A stretch of 11,639 nucleotides of DNA from UHGV virus genome UHGV-0070899. One strand, written 5' to 3'. Below the pieces are notes generated by a model, which saw only the letters and a list, made by a program, of their open reading frames with translations, was not told the DNA's origin and ran no database searches. Shown piece after piece: positions 1 to 11,639 of this stretch (positions are counted from its first letter, which is position 1; each line of letters starts with the position of its first letter). The translations under genes were made by a program, and so were the position numbers. This DNA comes from a virus.

Positions 1-69
1 AGTATTTTTAGTCATCCTGTTTACCTCTTTCTCAGGAAGTTTAGTCTCCAGGATTCCCGGGGCGGTTCA
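1..69 (-). mobile_element. Partial IS3-family insertion sequence (IS629/IS1203-like): terminal inverted repeat plus first 5 codons of orfA; element body lies left of the window
   Basis: Reverse complement of 1-69 reads TGAACCGCCCCGGGAATCCTGGAGACTAAACTTCCTGAGAAAGAGGTAAACAGG-ATGACTAAAAATACT, which I recognise from memory as the IS629 left end and the MTKNT start of its OrfA. Nearly identical inverted copy at 11571-11639. Confidence 0.75.
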
Positions 70-70
70 G

Positions 71-160
71 TCTGGTAAGTGCCGTATTGCTGTGTGGTAT
101 TCAGCATGTGCTGTACGACCAGAGGCAATTGGTGTTGGTCTGCCTAACCAGACTGCGTGA
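71..160 (+). pseudogene. 3-prime fragment of the P22-type major coat protein gene (last 29 codons), truncated upstream by the IS
   Basis: Frame open from the IS boundary to TGA at 158-160 translates [29 protein letters not shown], closely matching the recalled P22 gp5 C-terminus (...[27 protein letters not shown]). A terminator follows. Confidence 0.75.
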
Positions 161-204: not shown

Positions 205-441
205 ATGACACACATGATCTTTCGTCATGGCGACATGAAGAAGTGGAAAGGCGTTGGCTACGACTTTGAAATCGTGAAAGCCGAAGAGCTTCAGGAATAT
301 CTGGATGCTGGTTGGTTTTCACATCCTGATGACCTTTTGAAGGATGTTGCAGAGCCAGAGCCAGAGCCAGAAGAAAAACAGCGTAAAAAGCCTGGTCGAA
401 AACCTAAGGCGGCAGCAGATGAACCTGACAACGAAGGGTGA
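205..441 (+). CDS. Small hypothetical protein (78 aa), acidic PEPEPE stretch and basic KKPGRKPK tail; occupies the slot between coat and gene 4
   Basis: ATG at 205 preceded by GGAG (195-198) with a 6-nt spacer. The longer GTG-157 version in the ORF track would run through the terminator, so it was trimmed. Overlaps the next gene's start by 23 nt. Confidence 0.5.
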
Positions 442-919
442 TTTAGTCCTTGCAGCATTACGTAAGCTCGGTGTTGCATCAAATGCCACGTTAACCGATG
501 TCGAACCGCAGTCTATGGAAGACGGGGTCAACGACCTTGAAATGATGATGGCTGAATGGCTTGGCGGTGATGTGTCACCTGGTATCAACGTTGGCTACAT
601 TTTTGCTGATGCAGATGTCGCTCCGGATCCGGGCGATGAGCACGGCTTATCAAATAACGCTATCAATGCCGTCATTTTCAACCTTGCCTGCCGCATTGCT
701 CCAGATTATGCGCTGGAAGCGTCAGCAAAACTTATAACCACTGCCAGATACGGGAAAGAGCGACTCGTCAAACTGTCTGCAATGGACAGAGCAAAAGCCG
801 CTAAATGTAAGTCCGGTTATCCAAACCGTATGCCTGTTGGTAGCGGTAATCAGTTGGCGAAGTGGAACGGTTGGAATTACTTCCACCGGAAGGAACCTTG
901 CGATAACGGGAGCGAATAA
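419..919 (+). CDS. P22 gp4-like tail accessory / head-completion protein (166 aa)
   Basis: From ATG 419 the protein reads [47 protein letters not shown]... and later [27 protein letters not shown], matching recalled P22 gp4 ([33 protein letters not shown]...[14 protein letters not shown]). Same length as P22 gp4. The ORF-track start at 344 is an upstream extension. Confidence 0.85.
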
Positions 920-2338
920 ATGCCGATTCAGCAACTTCCGCTTATGAAAGGTGTCGGCAAAGACTTTCGAAACGCCGACTATATCGACTATCTGCCAGTG
1001 AATATGTTGGCTACACCCAAAGAAATCCTGAACAGCAGCGGATATCTTCGCTCATTCCCGGGCATTGCCAAACGTTCTGATGTGAACGGCGTATCGCGAG
1101 GCGTCGAGTACAACATGGCACAGAATGCTGTTTATCGCGTGTGTGGTGGCAAACTGTATAAGGGCGAAAGTGAGGTCGGTGATGTTGCCGGAAGTGGTCG
1201 CGTATCAATGGCGCATGGTCGAACATCACAGGCGGTAGGCGTTAACGGGCAACTGGTCGAATACCGCTATGATGGCACGGTTAAAACCGTCTCAAACTGG
1301 CCTGCAGACAGCGGGTTTATGCAGTATGAGTTAGGTTCTGTTCGCGACATTACGCGTTTACGTGGGCGTTATGCGTGGTCAAAAGACGGCACTGATTCAT
1401 GGTTTATCACTGACCCTGAAGACGAATCGCATCCTGACCGCTACAGCGCACAATATCGAGCCGAGTCTCAGCCTGACGGCATCATCGGCATCGGAACATG
1501 GCGAGACTTCATCGTCTGCTTTGGTTCATCGACGATTGAATATTTCTCCCTGACGGGGGCAACCACCGTTGGTGCCGCTTTGTATGTCGCACAGCCATCG
1601 CTGATGGTGCAGAAAGGCATTGCCGGGACTTACTGCAAAACGCCGTTCGCCGATTCGTATGCGTTCATCAGCAATCCGGCAACAGGTGCGCCGTCTGTGT
1701 ATATCATCGGCTCCGGTCAGGTATCACCAATCGCCAGCGCGAGCATTGAGAAAATTCTTCGCTCCTACACTGCTGATGAACTGGCTGATGGTGTGATGGA
1801 ATCGCTGCGATTTGATGCGCATGAACTGCTGATTATCCACCTTCCGCGCCACGTCCTCGTGTACGACGCATCTTCAAGCGCCAATGGTCCGCAATGGTGT
1901 GTGTTGAAAACAGGCCTGTATGACGATGTGTACCGCGCTATCGACTTCATTTACGAAGGAAATCAGATAACGTGCGGCGATAAGCTGGAATCGGTTACCG
2001 GGAAATTGCAGTTCGATATCAGCAGCCAGTATGGGCTACAGCAAGAACACCTGCTGTTTACTCCGTTGTTCAAAGCGGATAACGCCAGATGCTTTGATCT
2101 GGAGGTGGAATCATCGACGGGTGTTGCTCAGTACGCTGACCGCCTGTTCCTCTCTGCAACCACTGACGGCATAAATTACGGGCGTGAGCAGATGATTGAG
2201 CAGAATGAACCGTTCGTTTACGACAAACGCGTTTTGTGGAAGCGAGTAGGGCGCATCAGGAAAAATGTTGGCTTCAAACTGCGCGTTATCACTAAGTCGC
2301 CTGTCACTCTGTCTGGCGCTCAGATAAGGATTGAGTAA
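920..2338 (+). CDS. P22 gp10-like tail accessory protein (472 aa)
   Basis: Same length as P22 gp10 and in the expected position after gp4. Stop of the upstream gene abuts the ATG (TAA-ATG); GGAG at about 909-912. Confidence 0.8.
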
Positions 2339-3186
2339 TGGCGGATTCGAATCTCAATGTGCCGGTAATCATTCAGGCTACACGGCTCGACACATCAGTC
2401 CTTCCACGCAATATCTTCTCGCAGTCGTATCTGCTTTACGTTATCGCACAGGGTACTGATGTTGGTAATGTGGCTAACAAGGCCAACGAGGCCGGACAGG
2501 GCGCTTATGACGCACAAGTCAGGAACGATGAGCAGGATGTGATTCTCGCTGACCATGAGCAGCGAATTTCTGCTGCGGAAGCAACGCTTGTTAATCATGA
2601 GGAGCGAATCAGCCAGGCAGAATCAACTCTTCAGGAACATGAAACACGAATAGCTCAGAATGAAAGCGATATTGCGTCGCTTGATACCAGAGTTCAGTCG
2701 CTGGAATCGCAGGTTTCAGACCATGAAACGCGCATCGATGCTCTGGAGTATGCCACTACTCGCAAGAAGTCAGAGGTTGTTTACTCTGGCGTATCTGTAA
2801 CCATCCCGACAGCGCCGACCAGCCTTGTTAGCCTGCTGAAAACGCTCACGCCATCATCCGGCACGTTGGCACCATTCTTCGACACCGTTAACAACAAGAT
2901 GGTTGTGTTCAACGAGAACAAAACCTTGTTCTTCAAGCTGTCGATCGTCGGGACGTGGCCCAGCGGAACCGCAAACAGGTCAATGCAGCTAACCTTTTCC
3001 GGATCTGTTCCTGACACACTGGTTAGCAGTCGTAATGCGGCGACAACAACCGACAACATCCTGTTAGCTACGTTCTTCAGCGTGGATAAAGACGGCTTTC
3101 TTGCCACAAATGGCAGTACGTTAACCATTCAGTCAAATGGGGCGGCGTTTACTGCCACAACCATCAAAATCATTGCGGAGCAGTGA
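2338..3186 (+). CDS. Tail needle (P22 gp26 family) with heptad coiled-coil core and extra C-terminal knob-type domain (282 aa)
   Basis: N-terminus [43 protein letters not shown] resembles the gp26 N-terminal domain. Residues 72-138 are regular heptads ([21 protein letters not shown] ...). The C-terminal ~140 aa is absent from P22 gp26 (233 aa), and the 282-aa length matches what I recall for the Sf6 needle. Start overlaps the gp10 stop (TAATG). Confidence 0.85.
2551..2751 (+). repeat. Degenerate in-frame tandem repeat (about 42-nt unit, 14 codons; HE-RI---E-TL-- x about 4.5) encoding the needle coiled coil
   Basis: Periodic protein motif [15 protein letters not shown] / [14 protein letters not shown] / [14 protein letters not shown] / [14 protein letters not shown] / [10 protein letters not shown] read from the translation. 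Confidence 0.5.
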
Positions 3187-3653
3187 TGGAAATAAAGCTC
3201 ATCGATAATCCGGTGAAGCTTGCAGAATTCCTCAACAACCCGGCAAACACGGGAAATATCGTAGACAGTGGAGATAGATACTACATCAAGCCTGATGCGG
3301 TATATCTCGGCATCTACGAAGGATTAGTGTTGGCTGGCGTTCATGAAGTGCGTAACTTCTGGCATAGCGTTGTTGAATGCCATGCGGTGTACGCCCCCGG
3401 ATTCCGTGGCGAATATGCACTGCAAGGGCATCGATTATTCTGCAAATGGCTTCTCGAAAACTCACCATTCCTTAACAGCATTACCATGGTTCCTGACACC
3501 ACGAAATACGGACGGTCAATTATCCGTTTGCTTGGCGCTACCCGTGTTGGTCACCTTGATGATGCGTACATGAGTAACGGAAAACCGGTTGGAATCACCC
3601 TCTATCAATTACCTCGTTCGAAATATGAGGAGCTAATAAATGTTAGTACTTAG
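3186..3653 (+). CDS. Virion protein in the P22 gene 14 position (about 155 aa); function inferred from synteny only
   Basis: ATG at 3186 overlaps the needle gene stop (TGATGG). Lies between needle and ejection-protein genes as in P22. I do not recognise the sequence itself. Confidence 0.55.
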   Translation: MEIKLIDNPVKLAEFLNNPANTGNIVDSGDRYYIKPDAVYLGIYEGLVLAGVHEVRNFWHSVVECHAVYAPGFRGEYALQGHRLFCKWLLENSPFLNSITMVPDTTKYGRSIIRLLGATRVGHLDDAYMSNGKPVGITLYQLPRSKYEELINVST

Positions 3654-4299
3654 CGAAAGCTTCAAGAATAAATTGCTTCCCATGAATGGGTATATGAAAG
3701 GCGGCAGCGACTCCGGCTCTAAAGCCCAGGCACGCGCAACTGAAAAGGGTATCGAATTGCAGCGCGAAATGTGGCAGACGAACATGCAGAACCTTGCACC
3801 GTTCACGCCACTCGCTCAGCAGTATGTATCAGAGTTGCAGAATCTTTCCTCTCTTCAGGGGCAAGGTCAGGCGCTTAACCAGTATTACAACTCCCAGCAG
3901 TATAAAGACCTTGCAGGGCAGGCGCGTTACCAGAGTCTGGCAGCAGCAGAGGCAACGGGTGGATTAGGCTCTACAGCAACAGGAAACCAGTTAGCAGCAA
4001 TCGCACCTACACTCGGTCAAAACTGGCTGTCAGGTCAGATGAACAACTACAACAATCTGGCAAACATTGGCCTTGGTGCTCTTACAGGTCAGGCAAACGC
4101 CGGGCAGAACTACGCTAACAACGTCAGCCAGTTGTATCAACAGCAGGCGGCGGCAGCGGCAGCAAATGCCAATAAACCGTCTGGTTTTCAGAGTGCTCTC
4201 GGTGGAGCTGCTGCAGGTGCTGCGATGGGTGCTGCAATCATGCCTGGTTGGGGTACAGCAATTGGTGCTGGCGTCGGTCTTCTTGGTTCACTTTTTTAA
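3640..4299 (+). CDS. Ejection (DNA-transfer) protein, P22 gp7-like (219 aa)
   Basis: Strong SD GAGGAG 7 nt upstream of ATG 3640. Size and position match P22 gp7. Gln/Asn-rich middle and Gly/Ala-rich hydrophobic C-terminus. Confidence 0.7.
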   Translation: MLVLSESFKNKLLPMNGYMKGGSDSGSKAQARATEKGIELQREMWQTNMQNLAPFTPLAQQYVSELQNLSSLQGQGQALNQYYNSQQYKDLAGQARYQSLAAAEATGGLGSTATGNQLAAIAPTLGQNWLSGQMNNYNNLANIGLGALTGQANAGQNYANNVSQLYQQQAAAAAANANKPSGFQSALGGAAAGAAMGAAIMPGWGTAIGAGVGLLGSLF

Positions 4300-4311
4300 T
4301 GGAGGTGTCTC

Positions 4312-5724
4312 TTGGCTACATGGCAACAGGCTGGTAATTCAGGCGCGCTTCTTGCCGGGTTGGGCGGCATGAACTCCAACGCTCCAAGAGCAAGTGATGC
4401 AGACGCCACACTTGCATACATTCGACAGAACAACGAAATGGAACGATCAGGTCGCAATAACATCGGCCTTCAGGCGTTACAGGGACTTGGTAGTGTCGCT
4501 CAAATATATCAAGCCGCAAAGCAACAGGAAGAGAATGCTGAATTCCAAAAAGAATATGCGGCAGCCATCCAGTCAGGTGATCGACAGCAGGTGCGAGATC
4601 TGATGACCAAATATCCTGGTCAATTAGAGAAGATTCAGTCTGGTATGAAGTGGGCAGACGAAGACCAGCGTGATGAAATTGGCAATCTAGCGGCAGGCGC
4701 TCGTCTTGCGGCATCGTCTCCAGAAGCAATGCAATCATGGCTGCAAAACAACGCCAAGGAACTGACTCGCGTCGGTGTTGACCCTAATAACGTTGCTCAG
4801 ATGTATCAGCAGAATCCTTCAGGGTTTGGTGAGTTTGTTGATCACCTTGGAATGGCTGCTCTTGGCCCAATTGATTACTTCAATGTTCAGGACAAGATGG
4901 CTGGTCGTGAGATTGACCGAGGTAGGCTGGCAGAGACAATTCGCAGCAATCAGGCTGGCGAAGCACTTCAGGCGAGAGGGCAAAACCTTTCCTATCAGTC
5001 AGCAATGACTGGGCACAATATCGCAGCACAACGCTTGGCTCTGGATCAGCAAGAGTTCGGGTTTAAGATGCAGCAAGCACAGGAAAAGGCTCAGCAGTTG
5101 ATTAGCGAAGCACCTAAGCTGTCAGTAAACATGGAAAAAGGCATTGAGACGGCTGTAAACAATGCCACAGCATCATCAAATTCAGCCAATTCTATGAGTG
5201 CGCTAGCTCAACAGTTCAGAGCAGAAAAACCAACGACAGGTTTGTTCGGTAACGCACAGAACATGTTCGCAAAACTTACCGGAAGCGATACGACATTGCG
5301 TGATTTGCGCATTCGCCAAAATGCCCTTGTTAACAGTCAGGTTCTTAAATTCCTACCTCCCGGCCCCGCAACGGATAAAGACGTTGAGATCGTTCGTCAG
5401 GGTGCACCAACTGACATGGATAACCCTGAGACGGTCGCAAGATGGCTTGATGCTATGGCAAACCTTGAGCGACGAAACGCGCAGTTTAATGAGTTTAAAG
5501 CCGAGTGGATGAGCGCGAATGGCAACCCTGGACAATCGCGTAATGGCGGTCAGATATTGGGGTTGGATGTTAAAAAAGGTGAATCATTGGGAAGTGCCGT
5601 TAAACGGTATATGTCAATGAATACTGACGCAGCGCCAGCGCAAGATTCGCCACCTTCAGGAGAACCACGGAATCAGGTTGGGTCATATACCTCAAAATCA
5701 GGCATTCAATTTACGGTGGAATGA
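4312..5724 (+). CDS. Ejection (DNA-transfer) protein, P22 gp20-like (470 aa), apparent TTG start
   Basis: Size matches P22 gp20 (about 471 aa) and order is conserved. GGAGG at 4301-4305 lies 6 nt before TTG 4312; there is no in-frame ATG until codon 20. Confidence 0.7.
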
Positions 5725-7664
5725 TGAAAGTAACTGCAAACGGTAAGACATTTACCTTCCCTGATGGTACGAGCACGGAAGATATTGGATCTGCAATTGA
5801 TGAGTATTTTGCTGGTCAGGCTGTTCAGCAGCAAACAGTTAATCAACCAACTCAAAACCAAGAGCAGCCTGTAGAACAGCAAGATGGATTTATGTCTGAC
5901 CTTGGCGAAGCAGTAAAAGAGACTGGTCGCGGACTGGTTCAGGCTGGCGTAAACGTGGCAAACATACCAGCATCAGTTGCCGATGCTGTAACAAGCGCGG
6001 CGGCATGGGCTGGCGGCAAACTCGGCATTGGCGATGGTACATATCAACCAGCGCCACGAGCAACAACGCAGGGATTAGAGCAGGTATTTGGACTTCAGCA
6101 AGGTGCTCTGACTCCACAAACGACAGAAGGTAGGGTGTTTGCGGAGGCATTGCCTTACCTGGCTACCGTTGGAGTTGGCGGCGCTTCAACGCAGGCTCCA
6201 ACACTTGCTGGTAGAATTACTCAAGGTGCAGCCCGTCTTCTGGCAGAAAACGCAGTCGGATCACTTGCCGCAAACAGTGAGAAAAATGATGCGGGAAAAC
6301 TGGCAACAGATATAGGTATTGGCATGCTAACAGGTGGTGCTGTTAATACTGTTGCAAAAGGGATTGGGCGTGGAATAACAGCCTTTAAAGGTGATATTGC
6401 GCCAGAAGTGGCGAAAAAAATTGCCACATCAGAATCGATGGGCGTGACACCAATGACATCTGATGTTATCACGCCGAAAAATGCTTTCACTCGCGGCCTT
6501 ACTCAGGATGCCGAGGGGGCTTTGCTCGGGACAGGCTCAAAGCGAGCGGAGCAATATGCAACGCGTAGTAAGTTGGTAAGTAATTATTTTGACCGTTTTG
6601 GTGAGTACAACCCGGATGATGTGGTGAAATCTCTGACCACCACGTTAAGGGGACGGAAGGATGCCGCTGGCGCTGTTATCAATGACGTCACCAATAAAAT
6701 GGGTAATGCCGCAGTTGATACCACAAATACCATGAATGCTCTGAATACAGCGATCGCAAGACAGGAACGGCTTGGGACGTCTGCCAATCAAAGCCTGCTT
6801 ACATCATTGCGTAACCTACGTGAAGAATTAGCAAACCCTGCAACTGATTTGGATGTTACGTTTGATCTCTTGCGTCAGCACAGAACAGCATTTAGATCCA
6901 ATGTTCAGGGAGATGCTATGGTCTTCCCCAACCAGGCAAAAGCAGCTACCAATATGGTAGAGAATGCAATGTCAAAAGATCTTCGTAACGCAGTTGCAAA
7001 AAACCTCGGTGCATCAGACGCAGCAAAATACCTTAAAGCAAACTCCGATTATGCAAACGTTTATAATAAGGTGCTTAATAAAAACATTGCTAACAAGCTC
7101 AACAAGGCAAGCAGTGAAGCCAGTCCTGAACTTATAAATACCGTTGTATTAAGCAGAAAACCATCTGACGTGAAACGAATCTGGAGCGCATTGGATGATA
7201 AAGGGAAAGATGCTATGCGTGCAGCTTACGTCAGCAAAATGGCGGAAAAGGCCGGTGACTCTCCAGCCAAGTTCATCACTGAAGTTAATAAGCTTAAATC
7301 TCAGTCAGGCGGTGAAATTTACAACACTATTTTTTCTGGAAAGCACATGAAAGAGCTTGATGCTCTTCATGAAGTTCTACAGCAAACAGCAAGGTCAGAC
7401 ACCGCAAATGTAGTAACTCAGACGGGGCAATCGCAAGCCAACAGGATAAGGACGATTGGCGCAACTGCGACTCTTGGCGTATCAATGGGGCTTGAGGCTG
7501 GTTTCGGTGCAATGATGCGCTTGTATGAGTCCAAAGCAGCAAGGAATGCTCTCTTACGTCTGGCAAACACCAAAGCAGGAACACCAGCCTATGAAAGAGC
7601 GCTAAATAATGCTGCAAATGCTATACGCCCTATACTTGCACCCCAAATTACAGCAGAACAATAG
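5721..7664 (+). CDS. Ejection (DNA-transfer) protein, P22 gp16-like (647 aa)
   Basis: N-terminus [33 protein letters not shown] matches my recollection of P22 gp16. Start overlaps the gp20 stop (ATGA). Last gene before the tailspike. Confidence 0.75.
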
Positions 7665-7715
7665 AATAAATAATTAACTAAGCACATAACTACTGACAGA
7701 TAACCAACGCAACGA

Positions 7716-7738
7716 CCCAGCTTCGGCTGGGGTTTTTT
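7716..7738 (+). terminator. Rho-independent terminator between gp16 and the tailspike gene
   Basis: Stem CCCAGC (7716-7721), loop TTCG, stem GCTGGG (7726-7731), then G plus six T (7733-7738). Confidence 0.6.
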
Positions 7739-7797
7739 ATGCCCAAAATTCACCGTGGCCATGCTGCGGCGATTCCTTGTATCTGGAGCAAATTAAA

Positions 7798-9759
7798 ATG
7801 ACAGATTCAATAAATGCCAATGTTGTAGTGAGCATGCCTTCTCAACTCTTCACTATGGCGCGTTCTTTTAAAGCCGTAGCCAATGGAAAAATTTATATCG
7901 GTAAAATTGACACTGACCCGGTAAATCCTGAAAACCAGATTCAGGTTTATGTGGAGAACGAAGACGGCTCTCACGTTCCTGTTTCGCAACCAATCATCAT
8001 TAACGCCGCTGGTTACCCTGTATATAACGGACAGATTGCCAAGTTCGTTACTGTGCAGGGTCATTCTATGGCTGTTTATGATGCATATAGTGCACAGCAG
8101 TTCTATTTTCCAAACGTGCTGAAGTATGACCCTGATCAGTTGCGACAAGAACTTGCTGGTCCTGATGGATATACTTTAATTCCGTCTATGCCAATACATA
8201 TTCAAATGCAAAAATGGCGTGACGATGGTGATATTAGGGGATGGGGATGTGTTTGCGATGGCGTTGCTGATGATTCAGACAACTTTCAGGCTGCAATTGT
8301 TTATTCAGAAGCGCACGATCGGCAATTATTTATTCCTGGGCCGATAAGAATCACGAAGAAAATCACGTTTACAAAGCCCCCTCAGTTACGTGGTTTCATG
8401 TACTCGCCGCCAGTAATTGGTAATTTTCAGGGCACCCCATACGCACACAAGGGATGCATAATCTATTCAGAGGTTGCATCTGGGTACTGCATAGAAATAA
8501 ACCCGCCAAGTAATAATCAGTACATACGCGGTCTGAACATTATTGACGTTCACGTACTGGCAAGTGGACCAGGTGTTTCAGGAGCTGGAGTATTAATAGC
8601 AAACTGCGGATGGGGTGGTTATGTTCGTGGACTTGTTGTTGAAGGATTCCATGGTGGTGGGCTGACTCTAAGTCAGTTGCAAGATACACTTTTTGACCAA
8701 TTGGAAATTCTAGATTGCGGAACAGATGGTGATGTATCTGGTGCCGGTAGATATGCTTTAACAATCAATAATGGCTCCAACATCCTGGCATTCAACAGAT
8801 GCAGGATGGAAGCTAACAACGCGCAAATGCATATTATTAATGGGGGCCATTTCGAGTTTAACAATTGCCATTTTGAGCAAGGTGATTATCCGAATTGTTC
8901 TCTTGGTCAAGAGTTTCAGAGAATAAATAGATATCCATCTATTGTATTGCAGCGGTGCAGCAATGTGAAATTTATAGGTGGTATGATTTTTGGTGCGACA
9001 CTTCAGCAACAGATGTCTGTTCATTCGGTAACTCCATCTCAGGCAGCATACAACTTTTCTATTGGAGGTGACTGCACGAACGTAATATTTGAAGGGACAA
9101 CCTTAGGATTTGGGTATGGGTCAGGAAAAATTATAGAGCACCATGGAAGTGGAAGTTTCAGTAATTGTAACTTTGAAAATATGTGCACAGAAGTAGCCCC
9201 AATTATACTCGACGGTAGTATTCTGTTTACAGGAAATAATGTTAGTTATACCGATAATTTAAGCAGCAATGTCTTTATAGGAATGGAAGCATACCTTGCA
9301 ACTATCAAAGGTAATTTCTTCGGTTGCATAAATAGTTCATCTGTAAATAAAACATCTGGAGCTTTGTTTACTGGCAGCAAATTAAGAAAGGCAAGGCTTG
9401 GTATCAATCAATATGTCATAAGCAAGATGAGCATGTTTACAGACGGAGGTTTGATATCCATAGACCAAAGCACTGAGGGATTCAGTCCCTTGTCAACAGG
9501 AACTCCAGCCATCAATGCATCAAGTCCTAATACGATTTACTTTTTTAGCTCTCCAGGAACCGTCACTGATTTTACAGGAATCATTGATAATCAGAGGCCT
9601 ACATTCTTAAATGCCAGCTCTGGAAACGTCACATTTCAAAATGGCCCCGCCCTTCATTGCAAGGGAGGAGTTAATGCGGTTGTCCCTCCTGGCGAGATGA
9701 TCACATTTATGTACAGTGGATTTTCTGGAGTCAAGCTAGAGATTAGCAGGACATTTTGA
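7798..9759 (+). CDS. Tailspike: P22-family head-binding domain (residues 1 to about 114) fused to a distinct beta-helix-like receptor-binding domain (653 aa)
   Basis: From ATG 7798: [60 protein letters not shown]...NVLKYDPDQ, matching the conserved P22 gp9 / Sf6 / HK620 N-terminal domain. The remainder is Gly/Asn/Ser-rich with repeated rung-like motifs ([18 protein letters not shown]). GGAG 9 nt upstream. The ORF-track start at 7777 is a TTG extension. Confidence 0.9.
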
Positions 9760-9800: not shown

Positions 9801-10559
9801 CTAGATCTCTATCTCAATGCTATCAGGTAAATATTTTTTATATTTAAGCAGAGATAATTCGATTTCTTTCTTTGATATCTCAAATAAAATATCAAGTTCA
9901 GTTTCACCTGTTTTTTTTGCTCCAAACCTTTCATGGAATTTTATTACCGATGTATTACCCTTTCTTACATCAAAATGAGATTTTGCGAATCCAAGCTTAA
10001 GTGCATATGTATACAAAAGAAGTGCAGATTCTATTGCATAATGTGCAGGGGCGTTATCTACTATTACCCATGATCCCCAGCAAAAAGAATCTCCCACTTG
10101 GTCATACATCCTGATGGTGCCTAATCTTTCCCCTGAGTAGTTCTCAATAATAAAATATGCTTGACCTTTACTGCTTTCGTAATATTTCAACCAGTCACGT
10201 TGCTGCTCAACATCTGTTGAGGTTGAGCTGATAAATCTACCTTTCTTCTGATCGGTTCTTACTCTAACTATAAATTCAGCATCATCTTGGTTTGCGTTAC
10301 GCAAAACTATTGTTTTACCGACAATTTTTTTTGCTTTAGTGATTTGTGGGAATATATGGTAACCATTCATAGCTAATGCCTCCTGGACAACATCAGACTT
10401 GTCATTAAAAAGTATCTCTACGCATGAAATTGGTTTCGAGCTGTTGTGAACCACTGCAGCTCTAATAATTTCATCATGATTAAGAGATAGCAACTTAAGC
10501 TCATCTTGGCTAGTTTCTGGAGAGTTAGCCTTCCTGAAGTTATTGATAGTGTCGTTCAA
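9801..10559 (-). CDS. GNAT-family N-acetyltransferase (RimL/RimJ-like fold) with a 63-aa N-terminal extension; the alternative internal start at 10370 would give a 189-aa GNAT-only product
   Basis: C-terminal half carries GNAT hallmarks (TIVLRNANQDDAEF..., WGSWVIVDN...SHFDVRKGNTSVIKFHERFGAKKTGE). TTG at 10559 has GAGGA 6 nt upstream; in-frame ATG at 10370 has a perfect AGGAGG 8 nt upstream. Gene is strongly AT-rich compared with the phage core. Confidence 0.8.
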   Translation of the reverse strand: MNDTINNFRKANSPETSQDELKLLSLNHDEIIRAAVVHNSSKPISCVEILFNDKSDVVQEALAMNGYHIFPQITKAKKIVGKTIVLRNANQDDAEFIVRVRTDQKKGRFISSTSTDVEQQRDWLKYYESSKGQAYFIIENYSGERLGTIRMYDQVGDSFCWGSWVIVDNAPAHYAIESALLLYTYALKLGFAKSHFDVRKGNTSVIKFHERFGAKKTGETELDILFEISKKEIELSLLKYKKYLPDSIEIEI

Positions 10560-11030: not shown

Positions 11031-11326
11031 AAGCCAGTCCGCCCACCACTGCATCATTTCTCTGCGCTTATCGTGGCAGATGCCTCACTATCACACGGTG
11101 ATGGTTCATTACTGGTTTGCATAATGGATAGAGAACTGAGGATAAAAGATATCCCAAAACCCAAAAATCTCATCTTTAGGATTTGCAGAAAGGGAGGCGT
11201 GAACAGATACCTGCGCATGAAGACGGAACTAGTCCAGATGTGATATTTGTGGTGATCACATACATCATCAACGATGCTCGTTATGGTGAGTTTGATGACT
11301 ACCCGCTGAAGTGAAAATTGTGTTGT

Positions 11327-11346
11327 GTACCAAATTGCGTACCAAA
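11327..11346. repeat. Two direct copies of GTACCAAA spaced 12 bp apart, candidate integrase arm-type or other protein-binding sites
   Basis: gtaccaaattgc-gtaccaaactaa read directly, about 55-75 bp from the proposed host/phage junction. Confidence 0.3.
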
Positions 11347-11386
11347 CTAAAATCACAAATCATGAAGCCCTTGTTCATGGCGGTTC

Positions 11387-11449
11387 TCAGGGGTGTTGCG
11401 CGTAATCGTGAAACAAAAAGGTAGATTGTTGCTTACCGTCATTCATCAT
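11387..11449 (-). pseudogene. sbcB: 5-prime fragment of exonuclease I gene: first 16 codons intact, then divergence and a stop after 4 more codons
   Basis: Minus-strand translation from 11449 is MMNDGKQQSTFLFHDY-AQHP*. The first 16 residues match the recalled E. coli SbcB N-terminus (MMNDGKQQSTFLFHDYETFGTHP...). The match ends at about 11401. Confidence 0.55.
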
Positions 11450-11570
11450 TAGGTTAAATCCGTTATTTCTGCTGTCTGCCAGAGTATCAAATATCACCGT
11501 GCTAATCAGCTTTAGCGCGACAATTTGACAGCGAGTGACAACAGATCATGTCAGATAAAAATGAGAGGGT

Positions 11571-11639
11571 TGAACCGCCCCGGAAATCCTGGAGACTAAA
11601 CTTCCTGAGAAAGAGGTAAACAGGATGACTAAAAATACT
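11571..11639 (+). mobile_element. Partial IS3-family insertion sequence (IS629/IS1203-like): terminal inverted repeat plus first 5 codons of orfA (ATG at 11625); element body lies right of the window
   Basis: TGAACCGCCCCGGAAATCCTGGAGACTAAACTTCCTGAGAAAGAGGTAAACAGG-ATGACTAAAAATACT. Differs from the left copy at one base (GGAAAT here, GGGAAT in the left copy). Confidence 0.75.

Follow-up and report, generated by a model that had tools for sequence, protein, structure and literature searches.

The sbcB start and its breakpoint

The window, i.e. the whole 11,639-nucleotide stretch of viral DNA analysed here (UHGV-0070899), carries the start of the exonuclease I (ExoI) gene sbcB close to its right-hand end. 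On the minus strand the sequence from position 11449 (ATG) to 11387 (last base of TGA) is ATGATGAATGACGGTAAGCAACAATCTACCTTTTTGTTTCACGATTACGCGCAACACCCCTGA, which translates to MMNDGKQQSTFLFHDYAQHP and a stop and is composed of sbcB codons 1-16 followed by four phage codons and the stop. An earlier sequence-only reading had described this frame as an sbcB start running into AQHP and a stop, and this was confirmed. The sbcB gene at the empty site of E. coli OV2 (L019) begins MMNDGKQQSTFLFHDYETFGTHP, and the ExoI chains in PDB concur with this sequence from the second Met onward (MNDGKQQSTFLFHDYETFG). The sbcB match at 11387-11449 is judged to be far above chance.

The native sbcB start, consisting of codons 1-16 and the first base of codon 17, occupies 11401-11449 (minus strand) and is cut off from the remaining gene. 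It is preceded by the native upstream region at 11450-11570, a part of the dacD-sbcB intergenic region that is 98.5-99% identical to E. coli up to 11570 and presumably contains the sbcB promoter. The entire segment 11401-11570 (49 nt coding and 121 nt sbcB-dacD intergenic sequence) shows about 98.5-99% identity with the E. coli sbcB-dacD locus, and no difference from the empty site was seen in the 48 nt upstream of the 13-bp core described below. The final base common to native sbcB is 11401 and the first phage-specific base is 11400. Since the native sequence stops at 11401, the earlier estimate that unrelated sequence begins at about 11401 was exact, and the proposed comparison with E. coli genomes returned the sbcB upstream match at 11401-11570 with a breakpoint at 11400/11401.

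The phage-encoded tail of the fusion mini-ORF (A-Q-H-P-stop) lies at 11387-11400 (minus strand), with the first base of the Ala codon inside the core at 11401. Compared with full-length ExoI (NF008746; DEDDh exonuclease, SH3-like and C-terminal domains) the fragment has 16 native codons and a stop at codon 21. Asp15 and Glu17 are catalytic residues of the DEDDh ExoI active site; in the fragment Asp15 is kept, Glu17 and everything beyond it are absent, and the predicted 20-codon product is a by-product without ExoI function.

Prophage genes in the window

The left limit of the prophage is the 3' end (about 30 codons) of an IS-cut P22-type coat gene at 70-160 (plus strand), which ends in GVGLPNQTA and a stop; the PF11651 P22_CoatProtein match is weak and was called at L005 22-168. 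It is followed at 419-9759 (plus strand) by a P22/Sf6-like virion block with gp4, gp10, a tail needle with an Sf6-type knob, gp14, gp7, gp20, gp16 and a tailspike at 7798-9759 (plus strand), with matches to PF11650, PF11134, PF16532, PF11039, PF25688, PF16928, PF09008 and phrog_770. The block is 90-95% identical to the Lederbergvirus-type phages Louie, Sf6, IME10 and N7, and the collinear order gp4-gp10-gp26-gp14-gp7-gp20-gp16-tailspike is that of a P22-like podovirus. Given that the head, early and integrase (int) regions are missing from the window, this P22-like prophage is a remnant; it is a decayed P22/Sf6-like podovirus and not a Stx phage, and nothing in the data points to an EHEC host.

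Between the tailspike and the attachment site lies a cargo gene for a GNAT-family acetyltransferase at 9801-10559 (minus strand; PF13302, 1.2e-10; phrog_1249), which has the same strand as the sbcB fragment and is annotated by PGAP as GNAT family N-acetyltransferase in E. coli 14EC017. The product is 252 aa long, about 80 aa of which form an N-terminal extension, and has a weak PseH-like match. The gene sits in the slot where P22-like phages usually hold O-antigen-modifying genes (oacB in Sf101), and it is kept in a 4-kb remnant in 14EC017, where an O70-type O-antigen cluster is found nearby. The cargo gene gave no defence-system match in PADLOC, and an Rfam scan of the whole window gave zero matches.

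IS629-like ends and variants of the locus

Both ends of the window consist of the left-end 69 nt of an IS629-like element of the IS3 family. At 1-69 (minus strand) there is an inverted copy of this left end (IRL), inside which the window starts, and at 11571-11639 (plus strand) a copy lies in the dacD-sbcB intergenic region with the orfA ATG at 11625. The two segments form an inverted repeat that is 99% complementary with one mismatch. The right-hand copy is located 121 bp upstream of the sbcB ATG and, in the uninterrupted locus, 87 bp upstream of the dacD start. The remainder of the IS left of the window end is visible in contig L003. A full copy at L004 11522-12800 scored 313.9 bits against NF033516 (cut-off 160) and shares 99.5% identity with a plasmid copy that bears the annotation 'IS3-like element IS629 family transposase'. 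Judged by its TG...CA ends, its two-ORF transposase and this near-identity, the element is IS629 (IS3 family), of which 69 nt are present at each window end. The left copy interrupts the coat gene with about 30 codons to go, and what is left of the prophage is therefore a remnant of 11.3 kb.

Eight contigs with an identical tailspike were at least 99.8% identical to the window and seven of the eight also span the right-hand IS junction, beyond which they differ. In L003 (13774-15052) the right-hand IS runs into dacD. In L004 (11522-13637) it continues into a truncated 5' part of int, attL and the partner sbcB gene (sbcB'); L004 is a metagenome scaffold crossing an IS repeat and its layout may be a mis-join, the int'-attL-sbcB' piece being real either way. 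In L005 (11579-16407) and likewise in L006 and L007 the order is right-hand IS629::IS66, IS110, the 3' part of int and IS629. Taken together, the arrangements in L003-L007 indicate that IS629 inserted near codon 270 of int and that the whole early region was lost. The differing joins past the right-hand IS may reflect either a genuine inversion between the two inverted copies or ambiguous draft assembly, and the 11.5-kb segment between these copies could be invertible. The window itself looks like an entire draft-assembly contig ending in repeats, and its exact IS junction was found in no complete E. coli RefSeq genome.

L003 carries 14 additional coat nucleotides (2259-2272; gatatcaacactct) where the left IS meets the coat gene, which are absent at 69/70 of the window, and the IS-adjacent endpoint therefore varies among copies that are otherwise 99.8% identical. 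The different endpoint would reflect either an adjacent deletion or an independent event.

The att core and the four classes of attachment site

The sbcB frame passes from host to phage DNA through a 13-bp core at 11401-11413, which reads CGTAATCGTGAAA on the plus strand, where it has one copy only in the window, and TTTCACGATTACG in the sbcB sense. In this sense (11413-11401) it encodes Phe13-His14-Asp15-Tyr16 and the first base of Glu17. The 13-mer has been published as the attP core of the Shigella flexneri phage Sf101 and the Stx2c phage 2851, and Sf101 integrates at the 5' end of sbcB (PMC4159516); the core in the window is identical to the published one. The core thus lies in sbcB codons 13-17 with host sequence on one side only, in that 11401-11570 matches the empty site and the sequence from 11400 downward does not.

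Twenty-eight core contexts were tabulated from the retrieved loci and fell into four classes, between which the core was invariant. The class BOB' was represented by L019, BOP' by the window, L001, L003 to L010 and L020, POB' by L001, L004, L014, L020, L022 to L024, L026 and L028, and POP' by Sf101, HK544, HK140 and two IMG/VR contigs. In a four-way alignment the window equals the empty-site attB to the left of the core and attP to the right, whereas L004 equals attP to the left and attB to the right. The claim that this is an att junction was thereby borne out, as the four classes align as reciprocal recombinants around the invariant core, and the predicted strand exchange must be located within 11401-11413.

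The window is the integrase-distal junction (BOP'; attR in the lambda convention) of the site called type 2851, since its phage side lacks int and carries the tailspike, the cargo gene and the P' arm instead. GenBank records of HK544, mEp234 and HK140 hold the feature 'attP; prophage attachment site (type 2851)', and the int-proximal arm is common to 27 phage records, including 2851, 1717 and several Stx1a, Stx2a and Stx2c phages. The earlier statement that sbcB is a recognised integration locus for prophages agrees with the literature, in which Stx2c phages occupy it in O157:H7 (PMC3519850, PMC7175801, PMC9997748) and further phages in O145:H28 (bioRxiv 10.1101/2024.03.06.583675), in addition to Sf101 (PMC4159516); the locus is used routinely in the typing of Stx2c phages.

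Given the IS629-like ends that flank the window and the IS-mediated rearrangements and alternative contig joins in this lineage, one might suppose that sbcB was truncated in another way, by an IS629-mediated deletion or rearrangement or by an assembly chimera, and that the adjoining phage DNA is coincidental. We consider this extremely improbable. The breakpoint falls on the published 13-bp core, and the BOP' junction recurs with unrelated prophage bodies in 544 of the 5,426 complete E. coli genomes compared. No IS end lies at 11400/11401, the right-hand one being at 11571, 170 bp away, and the left-hand one at 69, at a distance of 11.3 kb. With the breakpoint at the att core instead, an IS-mediated truncation is rejected.

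The phage arms of the attachment module

The conserved P' arm of the type 2851 att module extends over 11165-11400 and is 98.5% identical to the arm in the TB06053 prophage (L001). The segment 10977-11430 is 91% identical to the attP of Sf101, both Sf101 and APC_JM3.2 match the window up to 11430, and the arm is also present in HK544, HK140 and the attP copies from IMG/VR. In every P' arm examined the frame closes four codons past the core (AQHP, AQYP, AKHP or AHPA, each ending in a stop), and free attP therefore also holds a mini-ORF of roughly 20 codons. Since the P' arm is common to prophages of very different body plans, the int-att module is a mobile cassette. The TB06053 prophage, which uses the same att site and has an unrelated body, carries a contractile-tail-type structural module and, at L001 23075-23230, genes for tRNA-Asn and tRNA-Thr downstream of the Q antiterminator.

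Two direct TTGGTACRC motifs were found at 11325-11345 (minus strand; two observed versus 0.12 expected), and the P arm of L004 has three further TGGTACRC copies between int and sbcB', in the same orientation as the P' arm pair. We infer that these repeats are putative arm-type Int binding sites.

The P' arm also includes a UmuD/S24-like C-terminal fragment at about 11180-11314 (plus strand; phrog_10470, E=0.006, a weak match), which is probably the fossil of an earlier cargo gene. Its annotations elsewhere are 'S24 family peptidase, incomplete' or 'HumD family translesion DNA polymerase' (PGAP) and 'UmuD-like protein' (RefSeq HK140), and in Sf101 a hypothetical ORF is annotated in this region on the other strand. 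A 100-aa ORF at 11054-11356 (minus strand) had no Pfam or PHROG match and overlaps this opposite-strand fragment, and it was treated as probably spurious.

The partner junction and the rebuilt sbcB gene

The window ends in IS copies, and the int-proximal partner junction was observed in L004 (with the 5' part of int) and in 14EC017; L005-L007 have the 3' part of int. The earlier reading had left two outcomes, a 5' end supplied by the phage at the other prophage end or a host that is an ExoI mutant, and the comparisons with related genomes favour the first, as judged from a surrogate start in all P arms examined and a 474-codon sbcB at the partner junctions.

Just upstream of the core, the attP of Sf101 and every P arm examined read ATG ACA G(A/G)C ACA GAT AA(A/G) CAA CCT ACC TTC CTC, which in frame with the core encodes MT(D/G)TDKQPTFLFHDY; the surrogate start ATG-ACA-GAC-ACA-GAT-AAA-CAA-CCT-ACC-TTC-CTC together with the core gives MTDTDKQPTFLFHDY. 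The POB' junction sequence is TTCCTCTTTCACGATTACGAAACC, and its frame runs on into the body of sbcB as an ORF of 474 codons, compared with 475 in the native gene. In TB06053, where int (L001 5246-6424, plus strand) is divergent from sbcB' (3640-5064, minus strand), this ORF is annotated by PGAP as sbcB, exodeoxyribonuclease I. The int gene of the att module is opposite in direction to the early-left operon, unlike in lambda.

A 474-codon sbcB was also found in 14EC017, which has the same GNAT cargo as the window, a junction of 99.2% identity and a 4-kb remnant in the order sbcB', partial int, IS1, tailspike 3' end, GNAT, junction and dacD. L004 has a 474-codon sbcB as well; it differs from the window by one mismatch over 11,590 nt (99.99% identity), and its int 5' part, attL and sbcB' are 98% identical to those of L001. 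Among the 5,426 complete E. coli genomes, 582 contained the POB' junction (matches covering at least 80% of a 361-nt int-proximal junction query), and among the matches listed the sbcB gene under the match had no pseudogene flag.

The rebuilt protein of L004 scored 814 bits against the NCBIfam ExoI equivalog NF008746 (cut-off 260) and has the domains PF00929, PF08411 and PF26016. It aligned end to end with the ExoI chains in PDB, with changes in the first nine residues and a few polymorphisms, and the rebuilt gene retains both Asp15 and Glu17. A degenerate-pattern scan of species-representative genomes found KQPTFLFHDYE to be native in Mixta, Buttiauxella, Winslowiella and others, and in these three genera KQPTFLFHDYETFG after variable residues is the native N-terminus. 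As KQPTFLFHDYETFG is native in other Enterobacterales, the surrogate start is within natural variation. No donor genus of the surrogate 5' end was identified among the species-representative genomes, because the DNA upstream of KQPTFLFHDYE there is unrelated to the P arm.

These observations agree with an integrase-mediated insertion into the type 2851 site in sbcB with replacement of the 5' end, a reading that we hold with high confidence. By site-specific recombination, with the crossover in the 13-bp core, a tyrosine integrase put the phage into the sbcB 5' end. Integration leaves the native sbcB promoter region and the first 16 codons fused to the P' arm, and this arm ends the fused frame after four codons and gives the 20-codon by-product. 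The P arm, beside the divergent int, supplies the surrogate start (ATG and MTDTDKQPTFLFHDY) in frame with the core, and because of this frame the partner junction rebuilds the 474-codon sbcB, which is one codon shorter than the native gene and differs only before residue 10. The rebuilt gene would be transcribed from the P arm and be active; the promoters of int and of rebuilt sbcB must both come from this 181-bp arm, which also bears the arm-type repeats. In the present lineage a fixed remnant of the prophage is left, from the coat 3' end to attR, with int disrupted by IS and inverted IS629-like copies on either side.

If instead the junction is real and the lysogen is effectively an ExoI (sbcB) mutant, either because no working promoter or ribosome-binding site is present or because the altered N-terminus is inactive, then the surrogate 5' end would be a fossil of the origin of the att module. 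A consensus scan of the 181 bp of P arm that separate int from the surrogate ATG found no sigma-70 promoter or terminator, the Shine-Dalgarno-like sequence ahead of this ATG is weak, and the sbcB-integration literature examined gives no report on sbcB expression in lysogens. However, the same scan did not locate a promoter in the native sbcB upstream region either, and the null result for the P arm is therefore uninformative; the native ribosome-binding site is similarly weak. All P arms examined, from podo-, sipho- and myovirus-type bodies alike, keep an unbroken surrogate ORF in the right frame, the residues ahead of KQ vary naturally in other genera, and the rebuilt protein scores as a full ExoI equivalog. 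The 474-codon ORF is intact even in the decayed 14EC017 remnant and the IS-riddled L004 lineage, and its survival in heavily decayed remnants is indirect evidence that sbcB' is still under selection. An intact ORF speaks only indirectly for function. An ExoI-mutant lysogen nevertheless seems quite unlikely, and we retain the replacement of the 5' end by a probably functional one as the preferred reading.

It is also conceivable, though rather doubtful, that integration rewires two transcription units, such that ExoI comes under control of the P arm and the displaced sbcB promoter drives the cargo gene. If this were true, ExoI dosage in roughly 10% of the E. coli set would be determined by a prophage and perhaps modulated on induction, and the native sbcB promoter, which points into a cargo gene on the same strand (GNAT; oacB in Sf101), might drive lysogenic-conversion expression. 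A simple scan found no intrinsic terminator between the native sbcB promoter region and the cargo gene, and neither ExoI rewiring nor promoter read-through is addressed in the sbcB-integration literature examined.

Discussion

The window belongs to an att type that has already been described (2851, Sf101, HK544, mEp234, HK140). The 2851 att site was reportedly first described by Strauch et al. 2008. A phage-supplied sbcB 5' end was not described in the sbcB-integration reports examined, and in PGAP annotations the chimeric gene already appears as an intact sbcB.

For the window, the junction fixes the right-hand boundary of the prophage remnant to the base and gives the att type, and hence the integrase family and the partner junction to be expected. 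It also calls for caution in annotation, since the 20-codon 'sbcB' fragment is a by-product and the real sbcB, headed by phage sequence, should be sought beside the integrase. The replacement of a 5' end is a tidy and comparatively unusual case of a phage preserving its target gene, and the chimeric sbcB is found in about one in ten complete E. coli genomes. Given the role of ExoI in recombination and recombineering efficiency, the ExoI level in such strains is a small testable question.

The closest known systems include Sf101 (KJ832078; Jakhetia et al. 2014, PMC4159516), which shares with the window an Sf6-like (P22-like) genome organisation and a same-strand cargo gene between tailspike and att. 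The P arm of Sf101 carries the surrogate sbcB start. The cargo differs, being the membrane O-acetyltransferase oacB in Sf101 and a GNAT of cytoplasmic type in the window, and the receptor-binding part of the tailspike and much of the virion block have diverged (79-89%, or no match). Moreover, Sf101 is an inducible phage whereas the window is an IS-bracketed remnant. Phage 2851 and the Stx phages of O157:H7 and O145:H28 share the core, the host locus and the P arm/int module (97.9% over 240 nt, int to core), but the 2851-type Stx phages are long-tailed, Stx-converting lambdoid phages of 57-65 kb, and the window has no stx or lambdoid tail genes. HK544, HK140 and mEp234, which have the annotated type 2851 attP and a POP' that is 93.9% identical to that of Sf101, have siphovirus bodies, and their sequences come from free phage genomes (attP) and not from junctions; HK544 and HK140 carry the surrogate mini-ORF MTDTDKQPTFLFHDYA(Q/K)(H/Y)P with a stop.

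Phage 21 and e14, which integrate in icd, have in their attP a sequence closely resembling the gene end that they displace, and integration makes the ORF whole again (see Campbell's review of insertion sites). In these classical gene-end replacements the 3' end is swapped, and the host promoter and start are kept. The type 2851 site follows the same restoring principle, but here it is the 5' end that is replaced, and the promoter, the ribosome-binding site and the start codon must therefore all come from the phage arm.
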